Assembly (NCBI GenBank): GCA_048213135.1 | Contig: PS015068.1 | Coordinates: forward strand, 87,940 to 145,537 | Length of the DNA: 57,598 nucleotides | Origin: Reclinomonas americana ATCC 50394 | Lineage: Eukaryota | Direction: 5' to 3' | Shown here: positions 1,662 through 55,447 of the stretch, one piece after another | How the letters are laid out: the number at the start of each line of letters is the position of its first letter | Position numbering within the stretch: the first letter of the stretch is position 1 | Translations under genes and position numbers: made by a program | Notes under the pieces: model-generated | Database searches by the model: none | What the model was told of the DNA's origin: nothing | Seen by the model: only the letters and a program-made list of their open reading frames with translations

Positions 1662-3970
<2,309 letters not shown>

Positions 3971-4523: not shown

Positions 4524-5608
4524 TCAATTTGCGACGGGATCGGCGACGAGCGCGACAAAGTGCATCTGGGAATGATACAGCTGTCAGTGCAATGTGAGGA
4601 ACACACGCACAGTGTACACAAACAAACACACGAACCATGCCGTGTGAGTGCACGATGAACAGGAATGGGCGGTCAGCGGTAAAGCGGAATGGCATGTACA
4701 TCAACGCCTCCGCAGCCTACGATGATCAAATTGTGGCGTCAGTCGTGCGCAGTCTTTGCCAGCACAATGTGAACACTCGCGATCGCGTACCGTGACTGCC
4801 GCAGCCTCCGCGCCCTCTTCGTTGCACTCAATGAGCACTCTGCAGATCGCAGGCGACACCTCGTAAGTACACAGAGTTGATATGTCGAGGTGGCATGCTC
4901 AAACCGTTGCACCACATCGGTCACTTGCAAGTCGCTCGGCTGATCTTGGAAGAGGTTACGGAAATCGGGGTTGGCGAAAAAGTCCTTCTCGTGCAGACCC
5001 ATGCTCAGAAGCAGGGGCTTGAGCGATGATTGGGTCTCGATCTTGAACCGCGGAAGTTGCACCGTGCCCGAGATTGGTGGCGTGAAGTCAATGCTGCTCA
5101 GGCCACCCTCCGCAAAGAAATCTCTGAGGAATTCCTTCAAGTCGGCAACACGAGGCACCACAACAGCGGCGGCAAACTCGCCGTCCTCGTACGGGAGGCG
5201 CACAGCCTGCGAGTACACACATGGGTGGAGAGGAAACGGAGAGAGGCAGGCAGGCATGCAGACAACTTGTATCACCAACCAGATACTCCCTTGTTTCTGC
5301 GTACTCAAACTCGCCAGAGACCGTCATCATGTTGACTTGCTTCTTTTCGCCACTGAGGAGGGAAAACAAGCCCAAATGTGTGGATTGCCTCTCGAATGCC
5401 ATCAACCACTTGCCCTTGAAGTAGACGGCAGAGAGCAAGGCGCACTCCACGCCCTCCGTGCTGTCCAGGATCGACGAAATATTGCCGTGCGTCTGCTCGG
5501 CACACCACGCGTTCGGGTTGTCGCCGACAAGGCACTTGGCTGTGCAGGCACGAAAGAGTCACGATTACAAAGAGTAGCCGAGCGAAAACTGGTGCGATGA
5601 AGTACGCG

Positions 5609-5715: not shown

Positions 5716-6289
5716 CCCCATCACTTACAACGATAGTGGCGCTGCAGCATTGTCACGCACTCGGGCACCAACAGCTGTCCTTCGCGCACCCACACGGCCG
5801 TCGCCATCTCAATCACGGTGCTGGTGGACTGTGAGATGTGCTCCACTGACGCAAGCAGCTCGGAGAACTGAGAGAGAGGGAGGAGAGTGAGAGAATGGGA
5901 TGAGTGGATGCAACGAACTGTTCAACGCAACCAGCTCGTGGACGCTTTCGTCGCCCGCAGGCACACCAAGCAGACGAGCCAGTGTGTCGAGAGTGGCTCC
6001 ACGAGCACCAGGCAAGCACATGGCTGACGACATGCAGGAGGTGAGACGAGGGGAAAACACACACACACACACATACTCACACACTCACGGAGGAGAGCTC
6101 ACCCAGCGCGGTGTATAGACTCACGGGAGCGATCAGCTACGACGGAGGAGAGACTTGAGTGATGAGGTGGCGAGGTGCATTCTTCAACGCATGCATCACA
6201 CACACCGCATTCCCCGCCGGCTCCTCCAAGTGCTGCTTGGTGGTAGCGAAACCGAATGCCTTCACATGATCTGGTGCTTCATGCTGCAT
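4524..6289 (-). CDS. Serpin 1 (intracellular, no signal peptide)
   Basis: Spliced motifs LIAPVSLYTAL, SAVYFKGKW, LPRFKIE, hinge/RCL NEEGAEAAAVTAAEALMYMP and serpin signature FTADRPFLFIV. Start MQHEAPDHVK at 6289 is inferred. Confidence 0.93.
5609..5709. repeat. Compound (CT)n/(CA)n microsatellite in a serpin 1 intron
   Basis: Directly visible. Absent from the homologous intron of serpin 2. Confidence 0.9.
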
Positions 6290-8668: not shown

Positions 8669-10342
8669 CTAGAAGCACTTTCGGCGCACAATTCGTGGTC
8701 CTTCATCGTCGTACTCGGCCTTGGTGATCCAGTTGGTTTGGAACGTTGACAGGGAGGTGAGCAGCGACCCACCAATCCAGGCGGCGTTGATGAGGTCCGG
8801 CGGCACCGCCAGCTTCAGCTTGGCAGAGGCTGGCGCAAGAGCAGTCATCTCCAGTTGCAAGCGCTCGGAGAAATCTGCTGGTCGTCGGTGAGACACACGA
8901 GAGAAGAGAGAAAGAGAGAAAAAGAAAGAAAATGAGAGAGAGAGAGAGAGAAGAGAGAGAAAGCCTTCTCTGCTTCTTTTCATCTGTTAACGCACTGGAA
9001 ACCATGCAGCTCCCGCCCGACAACACAACACAGCCAAACAGCTCGTTGCGCACGTCGCTGTCGCTGGCCATCACGGAGGCATGTGCCATTTCGTGGACGC
9101 CGTCATATTCCTTGCCGATCAGCGAGGGTTTGAACAGTACCTCGGCGCAGCGAAGTGCGTCGGCACCAACTGAGATTGATTGACCGTCGGGCATCTCGTA
9201 GCTTGTGTCGGCCACACCCGGCATTGCTCCTCCGTAGAGCGCCACACTCGCCATCTTCTCCTTCATGTCGCAGACAATGTCTTGTTCGGCCCTCGTGGCG
9301 AAGGTGTGACCTGCGGTCTCCAGGAGCTGTGTGGTGAACAAACGCGTTAGCGACACTCCGCGTGAACTAGTTCACAAATGTGGGAAATGGACACACCTCT
9401 TGCATGTAGGCGGTCACGTCACGGCCTGCCAGTGGCATCGTCTTGATGCCACTCCCCAGCGCGTAGCCGTCGTACACTGGCACGCATGTCGTCAAGCCGT
9501 GCCCTGAGTCGACAACGACACCAGTCATGTGGCCAGTCGCGTACAGGGAGAGCACGTTGGCAACTTGCACAAATGCAGCCGGTACGTTCAAGTTGTCGAA
9601 CAGGATGCTCACCACTGCACACGCAGTTGAGAATGCGGCACGCGCAGGCACCCACTATGCGCATGACGCAACTCCGCTCACGGTTCTCCGGCGCATTGAG
9701 AGCGGCATCGGTGAGCAGCACCGCATGCTCCTCTGGCGCGACGCGTAGCTCGTTGTAGAAGACAAAGTTCCAGATGCGCTCCATGTCATCCCAGTTCGTC
9801 ACTGCGCCGTCGACGACTGTCAGTCAGCAGTAAGTCACGGTGAGCACAAGCAAAGCACTAGAGCGCACCGAGGCCACGGTCGATGGGCTGTGAGAGACTC
9901 GATAGCCTGGAGGTGGTCAATGCCTCAGAGCCCACCACAGGTCCGGGACTGTGTGTGCGACCATCGTTGACGCACCCACAAGAACGTGAATGCCTGGAGA
10001 TAGCTCACCTGCCGACCAGCATTCGGAACACGGCACGTGGACTGTCATCGCCTGCAAAGCCGGCCTACAATCGCATGCATTGTGAGCGTTGCAGAGTGGG
10101 ATGGAGACAAGTCGCCAATGTACCTTGCACATGTCTGCACGGGCAGATGAGGAGGATTGGTGAGGCGAAGAGAACGTGTGATGTGTGATGTGTGTGTGAG
10201 AGAGAGGGAGGGAGGTGTTGCGCAACATGATCCATTGTCGACTGCAGAATTTGAAGGAGGAGAGGATGTGGGAGAATGGCACGCAGAGCAGAGCATCACT
10301 GTGTGGGAGTGCGCAACTCACGACGGGAACCACTTCGTCCAT
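8669..10342 (-). CDS. Divergent actin-like protein lacking the D-loop (9 exons)
   Basis: [30 protein letters not shown]...[12 protein letters not shown]...[17 protein letters not shown]...VVDSGHG...IVRRKCF*. The spliced frame is open and intron positions match actin A. Confidence 0.9.
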
Positions 10343-10509: not shown

Positions 10510-12720
10510 TCACGCACACTTGCGGTGCACAATACTCGGGCCAGACTCCTCGAACTCGGCCTTGGTGATCCACACCGTCTCGGCAAAAGACGCAACAATC
10601 GAGCCACCAATCCACGCAGCGTACTTGCGCTCCGGCGGCGCCACCACCTTGACCCTCATGGCCGCTGGTGCGCGGGTATTCAGCTCTGTCTGCAGGCGCT
10701 CCGACATCCCTGTATGTGAAGGAAAAAGAGAGTGAGGGTGACAGAGATCATTGTCACATGTGCGTACTTTACACACCGTTGAACATGGTGTTGCCACCTG
10801 TTAGCACGACGTTGCCATACAACTCCTTGCGCAGATCCATGTCGCAGCATTGGATTGCACGAAACGTGGCGCAGTCGATGCCGTCGAGATCAAAGTGGCC
10901 ATCGATCAGCGACGGATTGAAAAGCGCTTCTGGGCAGCGGAAGCGCTCCGAGCCCACAGTGATGATCTGTCCATCTGGCAGCTCAAACGTGTCTGTNNNN
11001 NNNNNNNNNNNNNNNNNNNNNNNNNNNNNNNNNNNNNNNNNNNNNNNNNNNNNNNNNNNNNNNNNNNNNNNNNNNNNNNNNNNNNNNNNNNNNNNNNNNN
11101 NNNNNNNNNNNNNNNNNNNNNNNNNNNNNNNNNNNNNNNNNNNNNNNNNNNNNNNNNNNNNNNNNNNNNNNNNNNNNNNNNNNNNNNNNNNNNNNNNNNN
11201 NNNNNNNNNNNNNNNNNNNNNNNNNNNNNNNNNNNNNNNNNNNNNNNNNNNNNNNNNNNNNNNNNNNNNNNNNNGGGAGCCGACAGCCTCGAATAGGCAT
11301 CCGGGGCCACACTGCACAGCCTTTCCTTGAGGTCTCTGACAAAATCTTGAACAACCAAAGATCGCGCCGTTCGTGCTTGATCCGGGCAGCTCTCAGTCAC
11401 CATCTGCATGGCGAATGTCAAACGGAAATCTCAAGAGACAAAGAACTTGGTGACAGTAGCAGCGTCGACATCGCTCCACACTGGCGACTGATCTCGACCG
11501 AGTCGTACCTTCACCATAAAACTGGTCAAATCGCGGCCAGCCAGTGAAAACTTCTGAATGGTGTCCGGCAGCACGTTGCCGTTGTAGACTGGCACGCAGT
11601 GGGTCACACCGTCGCCAGAGTCGACCGCGATACCGGTGGTGCGTCCGGACACGAACACTGACATAGCAGCACCCATGCGCGTGCACATCGCCGACACGTT
11701 GAAGGTCTCGAACATGATGCGGGTCACTGCGGCGGTGGACGAAGTGTGATGAGCAAACAACGGGGGAGAAAAAGGGAGAGAGAGAACTGGAGGGAGAGGG
11801 GGGAGACGCAACTCTCCTCGCGGTTCCGCTTCGGGTTGAGCGGAGCTTCAGTGAGCAGCACGGGGTGCTCCTCCGGGGCCACACGCAGCTCGTTGTAGAA
11901 GGTGTGGTGCCAGATCTTCTCCATGTCGTCCCAGTTGCACACTGCGACCATGACGCGGTGAGTTGTGGTGCTTGCCTGAACCTCGGACGACGCAGACGAC
12001 TCACCAATGCCGTGCTCAATCGGGTACTTCATGGCCAGGATACCACGCTTGGCCTGGGCCTCGTCGCCCACGTAGGCATCCTTCGCGTTGGTGCCAATCA
12101 TGACGTTGACATGGCGCGGGCTGCACATTTCATTCAATAACAACCATATCCGGTGAGAATGACGACTTTTGGAAAAGCATGTAATATCTCACTCACCGGC
12201 CAACCACTGTCGAAAACTGGGTGCGAGGAGCGTCTTCACCACCGTATCCGGCCTGTGGGAGCACGTGAGATCAACTATTNNNNNNNNNNNNNNNNNNNNA
12301 TGAGCTGTCGACTAACACTGATCGCTATGGTGGCACAACACTTGTCCGGCATCTACTACATGTGGCTGTCTCTCACTCTCTACAACCCACACTATACCAC
12401 GACTGCACAGAAACACTTGCCTTAGTCACTCCTGTCGACCGACGCCAGGTCACGATGCAAACATCATTCAAGTCAGTTACCGCATAGGGGACAACAGGAG
12501 GTACAAACAAGAAACAATGTCACGATGCACTACGACAACGAAAGGAAGAGAGAAAGAGAGAGATGATGAACGATTGCGAAGTTGCAGCTACGCACCAGAG
12601 CCATTGTCGACTGCACAAAACAAGATGTCATACAAAATGCAATGTTGTCGTCAGACACACAAAACAAACGACCAGCAGCAGCAACTCAGACGCACTGACG
12701 AGTGACTGGAGATCTTCCAT
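10510..12720 (-). CDS. Actin B, divergent paralog (spans N gaps)
   Basis: [30 protein letters not shown]...YPIEHGI...[14 protein letters not shown]...SIVHRKCA*. No stop codon in the visible exons. Confidence 0.85.
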
Positions 12721-12981: not shown

Positions 12982-13458
12982 CTACTCCTTCACGCATCTG
13001 GCCACATCCGCATGCCGCAGATTGGTCGACACCAACACACTCATAATGACATAAGTTGTGTAGTCCGACTGTGGCATGATCAGCGTGCTGCACGTAGCGT
13101 TACCGCCCCCCTCAGCATCGTCGTCAACGTCGGCGCCCAGCGCCAGCGTGTCGCCCAGCAGCGACATGTCGGTGGGGAACATGACATCGCACGCCTCCGT
13201 CTGCAGCAAAGAGTGCAGCACTTGCGTGACGCCATTCGACTTGCGCTGCATCACCGGTCCATTCGCTCCCGGCAGCGCACCCGTGAATTTCGTAAAGTCC
13301 ACCGCCACAAACGTCCGTCGTGACGCCAGTCGCGTCAGATTGCGCAGCACCGCAAAGGCGTGCGTGGGAGCGTACACCACATCGCTGCCGGAGAGCAGCG
13401 CATCGAACCAGCGCTTGAGATTGCGGAGCGCAGCTGCAGTAGTCGACAGCCGTCGCAT
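12982..13458 (-). pseudogene. Mini-NDUFAF7 copy 2 (presequence fused to the C-terminal half, with a further internal deletion)
   Basis: ORF MRRLSTTAAALRNLKRWFD...QSDYTTYVIMSVLVSTNLRHADVARCVKE*. Near-identical to 21480-21971 but lacks the FMREYADVQATQTRSGYNPLLH segment. Confidence 0.7.
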
Positions 13459-13578
13459 CCACACGCCAGTGACAAAAGCAAGATGTATGGAACAGGCTGA
13501 TTGCACTTCCCCCTCTCCGCCGCGCAGGTGAGATGAGAATGCGGCACGCGCAGGCACCCACTATGCACATGGCTCAAC

Positions 13579-14241
13579 TCCGCTCACGGTTCTCCGGTGC
13601 ATTGAGAGCGGCATCGGTGAGCAGCACCGCATGCTCCTCTGGCGCAACGCGCAGCTCGTTGTAGAAGACAAAGTTCCAGATGCGCTCCATGTCATCCCAG
13701 TTCGTCACTGCGCCGTCGACGACCGTCATTCAGCAGTCAGTCACGGTGAGCACAAGCAAAGTACTTGAGCGCACCGAGGCCACGGTCGATGGGCTGTGAG
13801 AGACTCGATAGCCTGGAGGTGGTCAATGCCTCGGAGCCCACCACAGGTTCGGGACTGTGTGCGACCATCGTTGATGCAACCACATGAATGTGCCTGCCAG
13901 GAGATCACACACCTGCCGATCAGCATTGGGAACACGGCACGTGGACTGTCGTCGCCTGCAAAGCCGGCCTGCAATCGCATGCATTGTGAGCGTTGCAGAG
14001 TGGGATGGAGACAAGTCGCCAATGTACCTTGCACATGTCTGCACGGGCAGATGAGGAGGATTGGGGGAGGCACAGAATGGGAGAGAGAAAGAGAGGGAGG
14101 GAGAGGGAGGGAGGTGTTGCGCAAAATAATCTAATGTCGACTGTGCGGTGAGAGAAGGGGAAAGATGCGGGAGAATGACATGCAGAGTGCAGCGGCACTG
14201 TACGGGAGTGCGCAACGCACGACGGGAACAACTTCGCCCAT
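13579..14241 (-). pseudogene. 5' half of the actin-like gene, truncated and degenerate
   Basis: Near copy of 9673-10342 that breaks off in the intron after ENRER. DNGS has become DIRL and the intron 2 donor is mutated to TTTGCG. Confidence 0.85.
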
Positions 14242-16509: not shown

Positions 16510-17034
16510 TCATCTGGCCACATCCGCATGCCGCAGATTGGTCGACACCAACACACTCATATTGACATAGTCGTGCAGCAGCGGGTTGTAACCGGAGCGT
16601 GTCTGCGTCGCTTGCACGTCGGCATACTCGCGCATGAAATCCGACTGCGGCATGATCAGAGTGCTGCACGTAGCGTTACCGCCCCCCTCAGCATCGTCGT
16701 CAACGTCGGCGCCCAGCGCCAGCGTGTCGCCCAGCAGCGACATGTCGGTGGGGAACATGACATCGCACGCCTCCGTCTGCAGCACAGAGTGCAGCACTTG
16801 CGTGACGCCATTCGACTTGCGCTGCATCACCGGTCCATTCGCTCCCGGCAGCGCACCCGTGAATTTCGTAAAGTCCACCGCCACAAACTTCCGTCGTGAC
16901 GCCACTCGCGTCAGATTGCGCAGCACTGCAAAGGCCTGCGTGGGAGCGTACACCACATCGCTGCCGGAGACCAACGTATCGAACCAGCGCTTGAGGTTGC
17001 GGAGCGCAGCTGCAGTGGTCGACAGCCGTCGCAT
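16510..17034 (-). CDS. Mini-NDUFAF7 copy 1 (174 aa open ORF lacking the SAM-binding region; possibly a pseudogene)
   Basis: MRRLSTTAAA, similar to the N-terminus at 22776, is joined in frame to LRNLKRWFD...SGYNPLLHDYVNMSVLVSTNLRHADVAR*. Confidence 0.6.
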   Translation of the reverse strand: MRRLSTTAAALRNLKRWFDTLVSGSDVVYAPTQAFAVLRNLTRVASRRKFVAVDFTKFTGALPGANGPVMQRKSNGVTQVLHSVLQTEACDVMFPTDMSLLGDTLALGADVDDDAEGGGNATCSTLIMPQSDFMREYADVQATQTRSGYNPLLHDYVNMSVLVSTNLRHADVAR

Positions 17035-17166
17035 CCACACGCCAGCGACAAAAGCAAGAGTCCTCAGCGATGTATGGAAATGGCTGATTGCGCTTCCCCC
17101 TCTCCGCCCGCGCAGGTGAGATGAGAATGCGGCACGCGCAGGCACCCACTATGCACATGGATCAAC

Positions 17167-17814
17167 TCCGCTCACGGTTCTCCGGTGCATTGAGAGCGGC
17201 ATCGGTGAGCAGCACCGCATGTTCCTCTGGCGCGACGCGCAGCTCGTTGTAGAAGACAAAGTTCCAGATGCGCTCCATGTCATCCCAGTTCGTCACTGCG
17301 CCGTCGACGACCGTCAAGTCAGCAGTCAGTCACGGTGAGCACAAGCAAAGCACTTGAGCGCACCGAGGCCACGGTCGATGGGCTGTGAGAGACTCGATAG
17401 CCTTGAGGTGGTCAATGCCTCAGAGCCCACCACAGGTCCGGGACTGTGTGTGCGACCATCGTTGACGCAACCACAAGAATGTGCCTGCCAGGAGACCACT
17501 CACCTGCCGACCAGCATTCGGAACACGGCACGTGGACTGTCATCGCCTGCAAAGCCGGCCTGCAATCACACGCATTGTGAGCGTTGCAGAGTGGGATGGA
17601 GACAAGTCGCCTATGTACCTTGCACATGTCTGCACGGGCAGATGGGGAGGATTGGTGAGGCGAAGAGAACGTGGTGTGAGAGAGAGAGGGGAGGTATCGC
17701 AACGTGATCCATTGTCGACTGCAGAATTTGAAGGAGGAGGATGGAGAATGGCACGCAGAGCAGAGCATCACTGTGTGGGAGTGCGCAACTCACGACGGGA
17801 ACCACTTCGCCCAT
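17167..17814 (-). pseudogene. 5' half of the actin-like gene, truncated
   Basis: Near copy of 9673-10342 (MGEVVPVVIDNGSHMCK...ENRER). Homology ends inside the following intron, at the same point as in the 13579 copy. Confidence 0.82.
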
Positions 17815-28548: not shown

Positions 28549-31500
28549 TCAAAAAGCGTGGCGTTGCAACACACACACATGCACAGCGAGATAAAGAGAA
28601 TGAATGGTGATGGTACAGATTGTGGAGGCCCTTTCGGGGCTATGAAGACATCTCGTCGTCGTCGTACTGTGGCATGACGTCGACGGGACTTGGCAGTTCC
28701 AGTGGGTCGGGGAGGNNNNNNNNNNNNNNNNNNNNTCGCCAGAGCTCGGCACCTCCGACGCCACGCTATCCGGCGATTCTGGTACTTGCAAAACGAATCG
28801 TGGCGGATGCACTGCCGTAAAGGACGACCCTCGTGGTCGCCCGTTGGCGCCGGTCCGCGAGTAGCCGCGCGGACGGGTAGCGGTGGTGGTAATGGTGGTG
28901 GTGGTGATGATGGGCACGGGGATGGCCGGGGAGGCGGCCGCGGATTCGCCACTGATCTCGGGCGAAGCACTGGAACGCACGGCGGCCGCCACCTCGCGTA
29001 CCTGCGCACGCCAGGTGGCCCAGTCGACTGCCGTGTCCAGCATGGTGTTGCGCCGTCGACTCAACACACTGTCACCGTTCGACATGCTCACACATCGCGT
29101 GTGACCAGACGAAGTCGACAGGATGCGTTGTGACTGCGCTGCGGCTGATTCCGGATGTGCACCATTGCCGTGCACAATCACCCGTGCCAGAGGCAGCCGC
29201 CGATGCGCCACCGCTGCCGGAGCTGTCAGTGGTTGGCGTCGAGTCGGTGGCGACGGAGCCTGGTGGTCCGCCGGATGGCGTTGACGACTGTGACTCGACG
29301 TCGGAACGTGTGCGGGTCAACTTGCGTTCGGCCGCGCGCAGCGACTGCTCCCGTGTCTCCAACCACGTGTTGTACATCGAGTCGCCCTCCTCCAAGTCGG
29401 ACAGGAAGCCGCACGACTTGCTGCTGAGGCGCAGCGAGCGCGAGCGCTGCCGCCAGGTCGTTGGCAGCGGACTGGTGCCCGGTGAGGGAGTATTTGGTTG
29501 TAACGGCGAGTCTGGTCGGCCATCCAGCATGCGACGGCGACGCTCCAGCAGGTCACGCGCGGCCGGGTACAGCTCCGGGTTGATCAGGGGCATCAACAGG
29601 CGACTGCCATGAGAGGAGAGGAAGGGAGGTAAGTGAGTGGCAACATGGGGGAAGGGCGGAAAGGGGGAAGGGAGAGGGAGGGAGGGAGGGAGGGAGGGAG
29701 GAGGAGGGAGGANNNNNNNNNNNNNNNNNNNNAGGGGGAAGGGGGGAAGGGGGAAGGGATAATGGGAAAAGGGAAAGGGCACTAGGAATAGGGGGGAAGA
29801 GGGAGGGAGCGCAAAGGGGAAAACGGGAAACGGGAAATGGGAAAGGAGAAGGACAACGGAGCACAAAGGGAGACACGAGAAGAAGGAGGAGCAAGCGAAC
29901 ACGGAGACCACGCAACTCCGCATCCAACTCGATCTTCAGGTCCTCGACTTGCCGCGGATTAAAGTTCTCGAAGCAAGTCAAAAACATGGAGCGCATATTG
30001 GCCTCGCAATGCTCCACGTGCTCCACATTGTCGTTGAAGAGCGGGACGGGTGTGAGATCGGCCTCGTTGAACACGTCCTCGAAGAATGGATGCTGCATGG
30101 CCTCGGCCATGGACAGACGGCGCTCGGGATTGAAATCGAGAAGGCCGTAGATGAGGTCGGCGGCTGGGGAGACAAGAGAGTGAGACGACAACAGCAGGTG
30201 GGGAAACACGCTCATCACACATGCGCCAACCTTCTTCACACGGGAAATGGAGTGCGCGCTTGAGGTAGGTGTGGAGTGGCCTACCGGGCCGCGACGGGAT
30301 GCTGCGCAGCAGCTCGATGAGCCACTCCTTGCTTCGCACGCCAGGGCTCAGGTCGTCAACTGCAGAGGGAGGGTGTCAGACATACACAGACCACGGGAAA
30401 CAAGCCAGCGGCGGTGGTGCTGGGGACACAAACCAGTGGGAGTGCCGGTGAACTCGAGAATCTTGATCAGCTGATCCGTGTCGTCGCGACCACAGAATGC
30501 TGGTCGTCTTCTGTACAACTCCTGCATACGTACTCGTCGTGTGAGAAGACAGACTCGAGAGCGGCCATTTCCCCCACAAGATGATGACCGACCAAGAAAA
30601 TCGCTCCCACGCTCCAGCAGTCGGCCTTGAGCGTGTAGCACGGATCGTCGAGCAGGATTTCCGGGGCGCGGTACATGCTACACACCACGTGAGCCAGCTG
30701 GGAGGTGCATGAAAGCAATCACAGAGTGCGATCTCACCGAGTGCACACGTAATCCGTGAGCGGCTTGCCGTCTGGCCGCGAGCCGACGCCTCGTGCCAAA
30801 CCAAAATCACACAGTTTGACCTGCGTGTCTTCGGCGTTGATGGAGTAGTTGACGAGGATGTTGGCTGGCTTGATGTCTCGGTGCATGATCCCGGCCGAGT
30901 GAGCTGCAGCGCATGCATGTCGGCATCACGGATATGTTTTTCTCTCTCTCTTTCATCACGCCATTCCCCACGCAACTCTTGTACACGCTGACACACAGGC
31001 GGTACATGACATGCCGAATGTGCTCTGAAGTAATAATTCGACTTTCCAGCAATCTCCGCAAATCGGTCTGCATCAGCTCGCTGACAATGAAGCTGCGGGG
31101 ACGAGAAGGGTGTGTGAGGGGAATGCAGAAGCAACAAGACGAATGAGTGACTGCTTCTTCGCTCCCCGCCTGGCCTCCCTCTCCTTCTCCCTCTTCCCTC
31201 TGCCTTTCCCTCTCCCTCTCTCTCTCTCCCCTCTCCCTCTCCTGCACGCAACAACTCTGGGAAGTCCGCCAGTCGACCTCGCGGCAACGTGTCCAGCACC
31301 TGCGGCACGACGCCACGTGGACCCGAGCCTGCGTTCTTGGACATGTGCAACCACGTCTGCAACTCACGGAGGTACTTGTGGACGTGCTCCGACGAGAGCC
31401 CGCGGCCCTCCTCTGCCAACATGTTCAACTTGATGGCACACATGGCACCGGTCTGTCGGTGACGAGCCTTCCACACTGCGATAGAGAGAAAGGGAGAGAG

Positions 31501-31872
31501 AAACAGCGTGGGTGAAAAAAAGATGCTATCATATCCGAACACATATAACAAAACAGCTGAGGCGATCGCTGTCGTTCTCACTGGCCTCCATCGCTCACCA
31601 CGGCCTCGAAGAGAGAGAGAGAGACACACACACACATGAACGCACACGACCGAGAGAATAGCACCGGCGTGTCGATCACTTTGGCATTCATCACGTCATC
31701 ACACTCCCGACGATCAACAGACACGCAAGGAAAGAGGAGGAGAGAGACAGAGAGACAGAGAGGGGGACCCGATACACAGCAGAGCTGATGCGCTTGTGTA
31801 CACACATGAATGAGTGTACACGAGACACAGTACTCAACCGGACACGAACACAGAGAGCGAGCGAGAGAGAGA

Positions 31873-31903
<31 letters not shown>

Positions 31904-32604
31904 CGGCGAGGGAGAGTGTGTGTATGGGAGAGAGAGCGAGAGAGAGTGAGAGTGAGCGATAAGTGAAACTTGACCAAAGAGAAACTCCTCCACTGCGCGA
32001 TCACGTGATGAGGAGAGGCAGTGACAGTGAAAGCACACACATACGCAAAGCGAGTGGAAGAAGAGAAAGAGAGAGAACACGAGAGAAAGAGAGAGAGAGA
32101 AAACAGCACACAAACACGGCATGACCATAAAAAGTCAAAAACAAACCTCTCACACAAACACACACACAGACACCCAACTCCACTCACTCTCTCTCACCCA
32201 AAGCACTTACCGATACCAAACGCGCCCGATCCCAACACATCCAACAGCACATAGCGTGACTCCAACTTGGCGTCCTTTCCACTGGTGCTGACAGGCGCCA
32301 CCATGGCACTCATCTCCGGAGGCACTTTGGGCGAGGGAGGTGGAGGCGCCAAAGGCACAGAAGGTGAGCGGCGATCAGCGTCGTCGTCATCGTCGTCTGC
32401 CTTGGTGGTGGCGGAGTGCGAGTCGAGAGAGGAGCTGGAGCCGCCGAATCGCGCCTTTCTCTGCCGATGAACTCCGCCTGTTCCGCGAGTGCGTGCGTGG
32501 CGAGTGGGTCCGCGTGTGGCGTGCTGGTGTGCGTCTTCACCAGCAGCAGCTGCGGCTGTTGTTGTTGTTGTTGTTGTTTCGTCGGGTTCGTCTCCGTGCG
32601 TCAT
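28549..32604 (-). CDS. MAP kinase (TDY activation loop) with long low-complexity N- and C-terminal extensions
   Basis: [53 protein letters not shown] and LDFNPERR. The start (32604 or 32658) and the 3' end are uncertain. Confidence 0.9.
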
Positions 32605-54009: not shown

Positions 54010-55447
54010 CTACCAGTCGTCCTCCTCGTCCGAGTCCCTTCTCGCGGCTGCACACATGAACAAACACACTCGTTAGACCATTGACAAATGACATGAAGTC
54101 GGCAAAATGGCGCGCAACTTGCACGCTGCACAATCGCCAAGTAGTCCAACTCCTCCTCTTCGCCCTCCTCTTCCGCTTCGTCGTCGGCTCCCACTCGTGG
54201 GCCGCGGCTGCTGCTGCCAGCGGCGGCTGACGATGATGATCCCCGAGATGACGAGCCGGAGCCCGACGGGCCAGCAGCCGCTGATGGGTCATCGTCCTCC
54301 TCCAGATCCGGCGGGCGGGCAAACACTCGCGGCTCATTCTTCCACTCCTCCAGCTTGGTCGTCTCAAACGTCTTGACTTCCTCGGCATTCTCGCACTCCG
54401 AGTAGCCCTCCAACAGCTCCTGATTCAGCGTCAGGAAGCCGTGGCCCCAGGTGAACTTGTTCAGCACGTACTCGGCCTCCTCCTTGAAATCGGTAATGTA
54501 GAGCGCGGCGGCCAGCGCCTCCACGCACGACAGCTTCTGCGGCTTGCCGTAGTTGACGGGATTTGCCGCAATCAGGAACGGCACTGCGATAGGGAAAGAA
54601 GTCAGCAGAGCATCATCGGCGCTCGATCCTCACACTCTTTGCCACGCAACGAATTCGCTCGTGATCGCCGTGCAGCTTGGAGAAGGGCACAGCGCGCAAG
54701 TTGGCCCAGCTGCAGTCAATCACACAGCATCCGTACGTGTTCACCACACGACGATCGGCCGGCGACACCACCTGCTTGCCAGCCGGACTGCAATCTTGGA
54801 GTCACACACGGGAACGGGAAGAAGGAAGGCAAAGAAAATGCTCACGCAACGTCAACACAACACCGCGGAACGATTGACCAATCGACAACTCGCTGAGCAT
54901 GTCCAGTCGTGCCAGCTTGCGACCAGTGCACTTTCTCGGATCACACTGACCCATATCCTGCACGAGGAGATGATGATGTGTAAGTGAGACAGAGAGAGCA
55001 ATGCATCGGGGCTCTCATCATCACTCACCCACATGGCCAACGGAATCACTGCCGCCTCCAACTCTGAGAAAGAGAGATAGAGGTGGGGAGAAGAGAGATT
55101 AGGCATTGGAGCATGGAAAGGAAGAAAGGGAGCTATTCACGTGTGCCGATGCACATGGCGACAACACACACACACACTCTTGTCGAGGAACGCACCCTCC
55201 TCGCCAAACACGCCACCCTGCCCGCATGGTCCGCTCATGATCTCCACGCCCTTTTGCTTCCGCTTGAACATTTCACTGTGCGTGTGTGAGAGAGGAGTGA
55301 GCAATGACCAGACAATGGCCGCTCACTTGTGTTCTCCCCCCCTCTCCCCGCTCATTTTGCTCACCGTCTGCCTTCCGAGCCCTTGCCTGTGCGCACTGGC
55401 GCACCGCGCTGCCCATCGGGTCCTTTTCCTCGACGACTCTTGCCCAT
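54010..55447 (-). CDS. TSR3: 18S rRNA aminocarboxypropyltransferase
   Basis: [63 protein letters not shown] and FTWGHGFL. Confidence 0.96.

Follow-up and report, generated by a model that had tools for sequence, protein, structure and literature searches.

Does the loss of the G at the last exon position (-1) force a 5' splice site to change its donor motif, and can such a change be followed at an intron whose position stays fixed? The question is raised by the actin genes in a 57,598-nt stretch of the genome of Reclinomonas americana ATCC 50394 (assembly GCA_048213135.1, contig PS015068.1, positions 87,940 to 145,537 of the forward strand), a scaffold with numerous N gaps that we analysed at its full length and call the window. 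Its first 20 kb form a tandem array on the minus strand, and bases 10221-10317 run from the GTTGCG that opens intron 2 of an actin-like gene, alk1 (10226-10221), back to the GTTGCG that opens its intron 1 (10317-10312), with exon 2 between them. A preliminary description of this locus had treated GTTGCG as a shifted donor that arises in compensation for a lost -1 G, the two donor classes interconverting over short evolutionary times. Our analysis points elsewhere: on balance it is probable, judging from the sequence, that this organism regularly uses GTTGCG(T/C) as a second type of GT-AG donor, read off-register, and that the difference between the actins and the actin-like (alk) genes goes back to two old class changes. 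Among the anchorable introns of the window, roughly one in four would be served by GTTGCG. Such an abundant second donor motif with no need for a -1 G is a more interesting result than the actin case, whose 'natural experiment' becomes a mere anecdote inside a wider donor pattern.

Junctions were placed throughout by protein colinearity or by prediction, and a purpose-written spliced protein-to-DNA aligner was used for those of the actin, alk and serpin genes. The introns that open with GTTGCG, including introns 1 and 2 of alk1, have GT at their 5' end and AG at their 3' end, and their removal restores a frame colinear with homologues in actin, in TSR3 (12 of 12 references), in a MAPK-like kinase (against 2erk_A) and in serpin (4 of 10 references). 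By this colinearity GTTGCG donors are anchored in actin/actin-like, serpin, TSR3 and MAPK-like kinase genes, four families unrelated to one another, a result that bears out the earlier recognition of N|GTTGCG as a distinct donor type looking like G|GTGCG displaced by one base. Among the 24 anchored intron positions (8 in the actin family, 8 in the serpins, 3 in TSR3 and 5 in the kinase), 7 carry GTTGCG in at least one lineage.

The anchored donors fall into two classes. Class I reads G|GTNNG(T/C/A), as in GTGAGT, GTGCGT, GTGTGT, GTACGT and GTAAGT, and has G at -1 in 19 of 22 position-states; class II reads H|GTTGCG(T/C), as GTTGCGT or GTTGCGC, and has G at -1 in only one of its eight states (A, A, T, C, G, C, C, A). 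Over these homology-anchored states, class and -1 G are clearly associated (Fisher p=4e-4). The covariation proposed in the preliminary description therefore stands at the level of class, GTTGCG going with a non-G at -1, but the variable is not the +3 T that had been named (p=0.056). Five anchored class I donors with +3 T (GTTGGT, GTTTGA, GTTCGT, GTTTGT and GTTGGC, found at 5279, at 4904/7143, at 4635/6881 and twice in the kinase) all have G at both -1 and +5. Eight further class II sites, at 1156, 24203, 29916, 31252, 41024, 45944, 54118 and 55932, are predictions of a second gene finder, which scored intron positions only but in which GTTGCG received a score bonus, so that the GTTGCG sites it proposes were used for the -1 base alone. 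With these added (n=16), the -1 base of class II is A in 9, C in 4, T in 2 and G in 1, and A is enriched over background (p=0.0015). Hand tabulation of the 16 donors gives T or C at +7 in each, which mirrors the T/C at +6 of class I. The 3' parts are alike in both classes, with CTNAY-like motifs and a CAG acceptor, and no functional GTTGAG donor was found among those examined in the window.

The motif is also over-represented in the window as a whole. GTTGCG occurs 68 times, at 68 of 7092 GT sites, against 48.5 +/- 7.1 in shuffled sequences, and none of 100 shuffles reaches 68. A gene finder that required only GT or GC at donors placed GTTGCG at 9 of 69 donors, and at 4 of 46 outside the actin/serpin block; the binomial test of this share, computed with 4/45, gives p ~9e-4. 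In the genes known by homology, this flat ab initio finder was right about 14 of 23 donors.

The individual genes differ in how tightly they fix the junction. In TSR3 (54645..54850, minus strand), the donors GAC|GTTGCGTG (54850) and TTC|GTTGCGTG (54650) follow an upstream class I donor, TGG|GTGAGT (55028), and each of the three is agreed by 12 of 12 reference proteins. In the MAPK-like kinase, the donor AAG A|GTTGCGTG (30971..30976, minus strand) follows an exon whose residues 1-32 match residues 107-138 of the ERK2 chain 2erk_A. Gap-free extension brings residue 38 to 144 and the split codon to 145, the downstream exon starting from 146, so that exactly six unaligned residues and the split codon remain between the two matches. 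The anchored class I donors of this gene are G|GTGAGA, G|GTCGGT, G|GTTTGT and G|GTTGGC (or G|GTAGGC). The gene itself (~29916-32313, minus strand) consists of many short exons and was missed by a Pfam scan of open reading frames (ORFs) of at least 100 amino acids; Pfam had no match for the short exons either, and a PDB search with the exon 31255-31473 returned no kinase, the donor at 31252 being a prediction. A possible additional GA|GTTGCG of the kinase, at 29916, adjoins an N gap.

The donor of intron 3 in serpin 1 is CTG|GTTGCGTT (5926..5931), and the paralogue has the same one at 8044-8039; this is the lone class II donor with G at -1. The segment between ...VHEL and FSELL... measures 64 vs 66 nt in the aligned paralogues and is therefore non-coding. 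Spliced alignment to ten distant serpin references, collected by a HMMER search of representatives, gave four votes to this junction and one to each rival junction. PDB searches with the exons flanking intron 3 gave matches too weak to anchor the junction, and a word-index homologue search with the serpin ORF had no match.

In the actin family, GA|GTTGCG opens the intron after NRE(K/R) in alk1 as well as in each of the four actins, and splicing yields NRE(K/E/R)M, colinear with the reference actin. The donor in actin A is AAG A|GTTGCGCC (intron 6, 2893..2898), and its homologues lie at 11812 (actin B), 15363 (actin C), 19291 (actin D) and 9672 (alk1). This shared class II donor had escaped the preliminary description, as had a third actin-like copy, alk2, and the truncation of both alk2 and alk3. 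At intron 7, by contrast, actins B, C and D vary freely within class I, their donors being GTACGA, GTGAGC or GTGTGT.

Introns 1 and 2 are those in which actin and alk genes part. As had been claimed, their positions are fixed: spliced alignment places them at the same codon and in the same phase (phase 1) in the four actins, alk1 and alk3, and every junction string quoted before was found on the minus strand. Actin A (donors within 3853..3945) has G|GTGAGT at intron 1 (3945) and TCC G|GTGCGTTGCGCG at intron 2, the quoted TCC G|GTGCGT with its first intron base at 3858. Actin B (12590..12695) has A|GTGCGT (12695) and TCT G|GTGCGT (12595), and the same pair occurs in actin C (16227 and 16123) and actin D (20182 and 20086). 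Class II donors occupy both positions in alk1 and in alk3, the 17.7 kb copy (17698..17789), in which they are A|GTTGCGCAC (17789) and TCA C|GTTGCGATA (17703); the product of alk3 reads DNGSH where that of alk1 reads DNGSY.

It is at these two positions that the explanation of the preliminary description has its best support. If loss of the -1 G weakened the donor, a shifted donor with +3 T could compensate and the classes could flip quickly; indeed the class differs between actin and alk at identical positions, the alk genes have a non-G at -1, the same association holds at class level, and GTGCG differs from GTTGCG by one inserted T. We nevertheless regard this explanation as unlikely. Loss of the -1 G does not force a switch, since A|GTGCGT persists at intron 1 of actins B, C and D and at intron 8 of alk1, and intron 4 of the serpins reads T|GTAAGT in serpin 1 (5728) and G|GTAAGT in serpin 2 (7839) with no change of class. 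Conversely, both serpins have G|GTTGCG, and +3 T combined with -1 G is common, as the five anchored donors described above attest. Nor is the interconversion fast: both class changes fall on the actin/alk split, at 54-59% amino-acid identity, the GTTGCG of intron 6 was kept across that same split, and none of the recent paralogue pairs (alk1/alk3, actins B/C/D, serpins 1/2) differ in class. As the two changes share one old branch in one lineage, their order relative to the coding changes is unreadable and compensation as such finds no footing in them. Under the reading that we prefer, the actin/alk difference would consist of two old class changes at fixed introns, where coding changes (Gly to Tyr or His, Val to Ile) leave -1 occupied by a base other than G.

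Turnover within class I is another matter. The two serpin paralogues are 80-90% identical, yet their donors differ at 5279 vs 7512 and at 5728 vs 7839 (minus strand); the first pair, in intron 5, is G|GTTGGT in serpin 1 and G|GTAACT in serpin 2, with a 5-nt indel, and the second is the intron 4 pair already mentioned. Class I donors thus turn over quickly.

Whether alk1 is a gene in which donors can be trusted bears directly on these comparisons. Spliced alignment to the actin reference P0031 covers residues 4-376 across nine exons with a score of 873. Exon 1 (10318..10342) reads ATG GAC GAA GTG GTT CCC GTC GTG A and is followed by intron 1 (10242..10317, 76 nt, phase 1), with the donor A|GTTGCGCAC and the acceptor CTGCAG|TC. 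Exon 2 (10227..10241) has 15 nt, TC GAC AAT GGA TCA T, encoding (I)DNGS(Y), and intron 2 (10135..10226, 92 nt, phase 1) has the donor T|GTTGCGCAA and the acceptor GTGCAG|AC; T|GT...CAG|AC is the sole GT-AG pair that preserves the frame of both DNGS and MCK. Exons 3-9 occupy 8672..10134, with donors at 10123 (G|GTACAT), 10008 (G|GTGAGC, hand-curated), 9868 (G|GTGCGC), 9672 (A|GTTGCGTC), 9396 (G|GTGTGT) and 8995 (A|GTGCGT). The open frame has 356 or 361 amino acids, set by the choice of the intron 5 acceptor, which is probably 9802 because alk2 and alk3 have no upstream AG. The 60-nt intron 10008-9949 was curated by hand, and a 15-nt 'intron' after VGR was dropped in its favour.

The copies themselves also speak for these boundaries. 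Between alk1 and alk3, 1.9% of sites differ in exons and 8.0% in introns, and between alk1 and alk2 the values are 4.4% and 18.7%; low exon vs high intron divergence supports the exon-intron structure. The matches of exon 8 carry PF00022, and alk1 belongs to the actin family over its full length, with 54% identity to actin C. It reads DNGSY for DNGSG and DSGHG for DSGDG, and it is about 12 residues shorter than actin between VG and VVGSEA. Alk1 accordingly lacks both an intact DNGSG loop and a full-length DNase-I-binding loop, DNGSG being, as we take it, the phosphate-binding loop and the VG-to-VVGSEA stretch the DNase-I-binding loop. The closest protein match of exon 8 is 53% identical, and no orthologues were found among 18 metagenome loci, which are at most 54% identical to exon 8 and are all generic actins. 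Alk1 apparently is a divergent but intact actin paralogue.

Two canonical-looking sites lie close to class II donors of alk1. An out-of-frame GTC|GTGAGT, in appearance a perfect class I site, overlaps the intron 1 donor of alk1 and alk3 (10321-10312 in alk1, minus strand). Splicing of intron 1 at this in-exon site, 4 nt upstream, was rejected, as the sole available acceptor breaks the frame. Its duplex with a free U1 of human type has -5.5 kcal/mol, and it could be a landing site for U1 or a decoy. The second, a C|GTGAGC at 9681, precedes by 9 nt the donor A|GTTGCG that homology supports for intron 6 (9672), and the flat gene finder picked this wrong site over 9672. Gene finders with a single donor model can be expected to misplace class II junctions in the same manner.

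How might GTTGCG be recognized? GTTGCG(T/C) resembles the frequent donor G|GTGCG(T/C) displaced by a single base towards the intron: in a reading that lags by one position, GTTGCG(Y) would correspond to G|GTGCG(Y) in which T has taken the place of the +1 G. The +1 G, the +6 G and the +7 pyrimidine of class II would then sit where the -1 G, the +5 G and the +6 T/C would be, and a G inside the intron that substitutes for the -1 G would explain why class II has no need of a G at the last exon base, which in class II is usually A. In the likeliest scenario, whatever component of the splicing machinery senses the -1 G and the +5 G would meet class II sites one base off, through shifted or bulged pairing, while cleavage would stay at the only GT. 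What the data establish are the junctions, through protein colinearity, the recurrence of the motif and the contrast at -1; recognition one base off, and any causal tie between the -1 base and the donor class, are inferred.

Shifted registers are known from other systems. Pairing of U1 displaced by one position (+1) has been described at atypical 5' splice sites (Roca and Krainer, 2009, through Tan et al., 2016, PMC4856993; PMC9311317), and validated non-canonical registers of all kinds make up about 1.5% of human 5' splice sites according to Tan et al. (PMC4856993). The resemblance is a close one, with no -1 G, the +1 G in its place, the downstream consensus one position late and cleavage at GU. 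The test oligonucleotide of Tan et al., ACA/GUCAAGUAUA, has A at -1, as most GTTGCG donors do (PMC4856993). As portrayed there, the human shifted register is a rare exception with long AAGUAU complementarity; here, 7 of the 24 anchored positions use one and the same heptamer, GTTGCG(Y). Moreover, the base at which A would give the best pairing is C in GTTGCG, and no stable +1 pairing forms with a human-type U1. By analogy, GTTGCG donors would work like a shifted-register 5' splice site and are candidate members of that group.

Bulge registers, in which the 5' splice site loops out a U at +2/+3 (Roca et al., 2012, through Tan et al., 2016, PMC4856993), offer a second likeness, as GU(U)GCGY minus one bulged U is GUGCGY, a common donor in the window. 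A bulge would keep -1 paired with C9 of U1, and -1 G should stay frequent, an expectation at odds with -1 G in 1 of 8 class II states vs 19 of 22 in class I.

Other known departures from the consensus share single traits with class II. Exon-side and intron-side matches of 5' splice sites compensate each other, and the donors A|GTGCGT and T|GTAAGT, with a non-G at -1 and a strong intron side, follow this rule; GTTGCG differs in that it is not a stronger canonical intron side and has no +5 G at all. GC-AG introns have a near-perfect flanking consensus, and actins B, C and D possess such an intron as their third, with a perfect flank, AAG|GCAAGT, at 12420, 15951 and 19895 (minus strand), whereas the same position reads AAG|GTACGT in actin A and AAG|GTACAT in alk. 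Here too the donor class differs among paralogues at an intron whose position is the same, although the change affects +2 and not the register. U12-type introns likewise combine an extended, strictly conserved donor motif with freedom from a -1 G requirement, but this identity was rejected: the donors differ from /RTATCCTT, the 3' end has no TCCTTAAC-like branch site in its vicinity, and the 3' ends are class I-like. Copies of an introner were rejected as well, since class II introns have no common sequence beyond +8.

Several points weigh against the off-register reading. With the human-type U1 5' end AUACUUACCUG as a stand-in for that of the organism, dG in the +1 register is 0 to -0.6, so that the shifted pairing is not stable in a nearest-neighbour model. 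In the canonical register, dG is 0 for seven of the eight GUUGCG donors tested and -2.6 for the serpin donor, by way of its -1 G. A plain shift would also leave the GCG-only pattern unexplained, as class I prefers GTGAGT and GTTGAGT would be expected. The sample is small, a single window of 57.6 kb with four gene families, and the support of each junction is colinearity or prediction. The eight additional class II sites are the output of a model that rewarded GTTGCG, and the lone G|GTTGCG, in serpin, is backed by just four of ten reference votes. Finally, G at -1 of class II (1/16) is not significantly lower than the background of 0.21 (p=0.12), which indicates that class II has no requirement for G rather than that it avoids G.

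The last of these points, together with the mere eight anchored class II states, the nature of the junction evidence, and the degenerate or truncated state of alk2 and alk3, would suit a world in which the two features have no mechanistic link: the codon sets the -1 base, donors drift, and the contrast is an accident of a small sample or an artefact of gene models that include alk pseudogenes. We consider this improbable, because the contrast (p=4e-4) runs over positions from four unrelated families, the TSR3 and kinase junctions are anchored independently, and alk1 is open across 9 exons that are roughly fourfold better conserved than the introns.

The unstable pairing and the GCG-only pattern have another consequence: they keep a dedicated reader as a serious rival, even if we hold it to be rather unlikely. 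GTTGCG(Y) would then be read not by standard U1 off-register but by a variant U1 complementary to A|GUUGCGY, or by a protein. The six bases and the +7 pyrimidine are strictly kept in unrelated genes, GTTGAG-type donors are missing despite the class I preference for GTGAGT, the simple registers of a human-type U1 do not pair stably with GUUGCG, and a preference for A at -1 would suit a U in a variant U1. Set against this, an Rfam scan had no matches in the window, which thus contains no gene for a small nuclear RNA, and the branch-like CTNAY motifs and CAG acceptors are the same in both classes. The 5' end of U1 is near-universal, and parsimony speaks against a dedicated reader.

It is tempting to extend the off-register reading to the whole lineage. 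Tentatively, this lineage may run two donor codes of the major spliceosome, G|GTNNGY and H|GTTGCGY, the second being off-register, used by about 1 in 4-8 introns and served by standard U1/U6 or by a variant U1. If so, the need for -1 G and +5 G would be met from within the intron, the last exon base would be freed for coding, and off-register recognition of 5' splice sites would be a genome-scale mechanism and not a rare exception. Such an organism would be a natural system in which to follow the choice of cleavage site once U1 binding and GU are uncoupled, the co-evolution of U1/U6 variants with donor classes, and the release of the last exon base. Our literature search found no description of a GTTGCG or GUUGCG donor, although the genome paper of the organism might contain one.

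The remaining members of the array complete the picture. On the minus strand, it comprises actin A (3970 to 1665), the two serpin paralogues (~8.4 to 4.5 kb) and alk1 (10342 to 8672), after which actin B, alk2, actin C, alk3 and actin D follow in this order. The alk2 copy (intron 1 and 2 donors within 14120..14216) is degenerate: its intron 1 donor is C|GTTGCG (14216), the GT of intron 2 is gone (T|TTTGCG, 14125-14120) and DNGS is replaced by DIRL. Both alk2 and alk3 have only exons 1-6 in common with alk1 and have lost the acceptor of intron 6, and the position of its donor reads GTTGAT or GTTGAG. GTTGCG is thus invariant in functional copies and decays to GTTGAG or GTTGAT only in the acceptor-less intron 6 of these two copies. 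On the 3' side of the truncated copies, where the repeat unit should continue with the 3' half of the actin-like gene, stands instead a repeated ORF of 192-212 amino acids (12985-13560 and 16513-17148, minus strand), for which a Pfam scan had no match and which may represent a chimeric gene or an insertion.

Two further motif occurrences deserve mention. In intron 2 of actin A, G|GTGCGTTGCGCG (3858-3847, minus strand) contains a GTTGCG at +5 to +10, directly behind the donor that is used, and one may speculate that a 4-base deletion there would yield an alk-type donor. GTACGT occurs 64 times in the window and is preceded by C in 39 cases; position -2 holds A in 38 of them all told and position -3 holds T in 29, a context that suggests a repeated TACGTACGT-like element.

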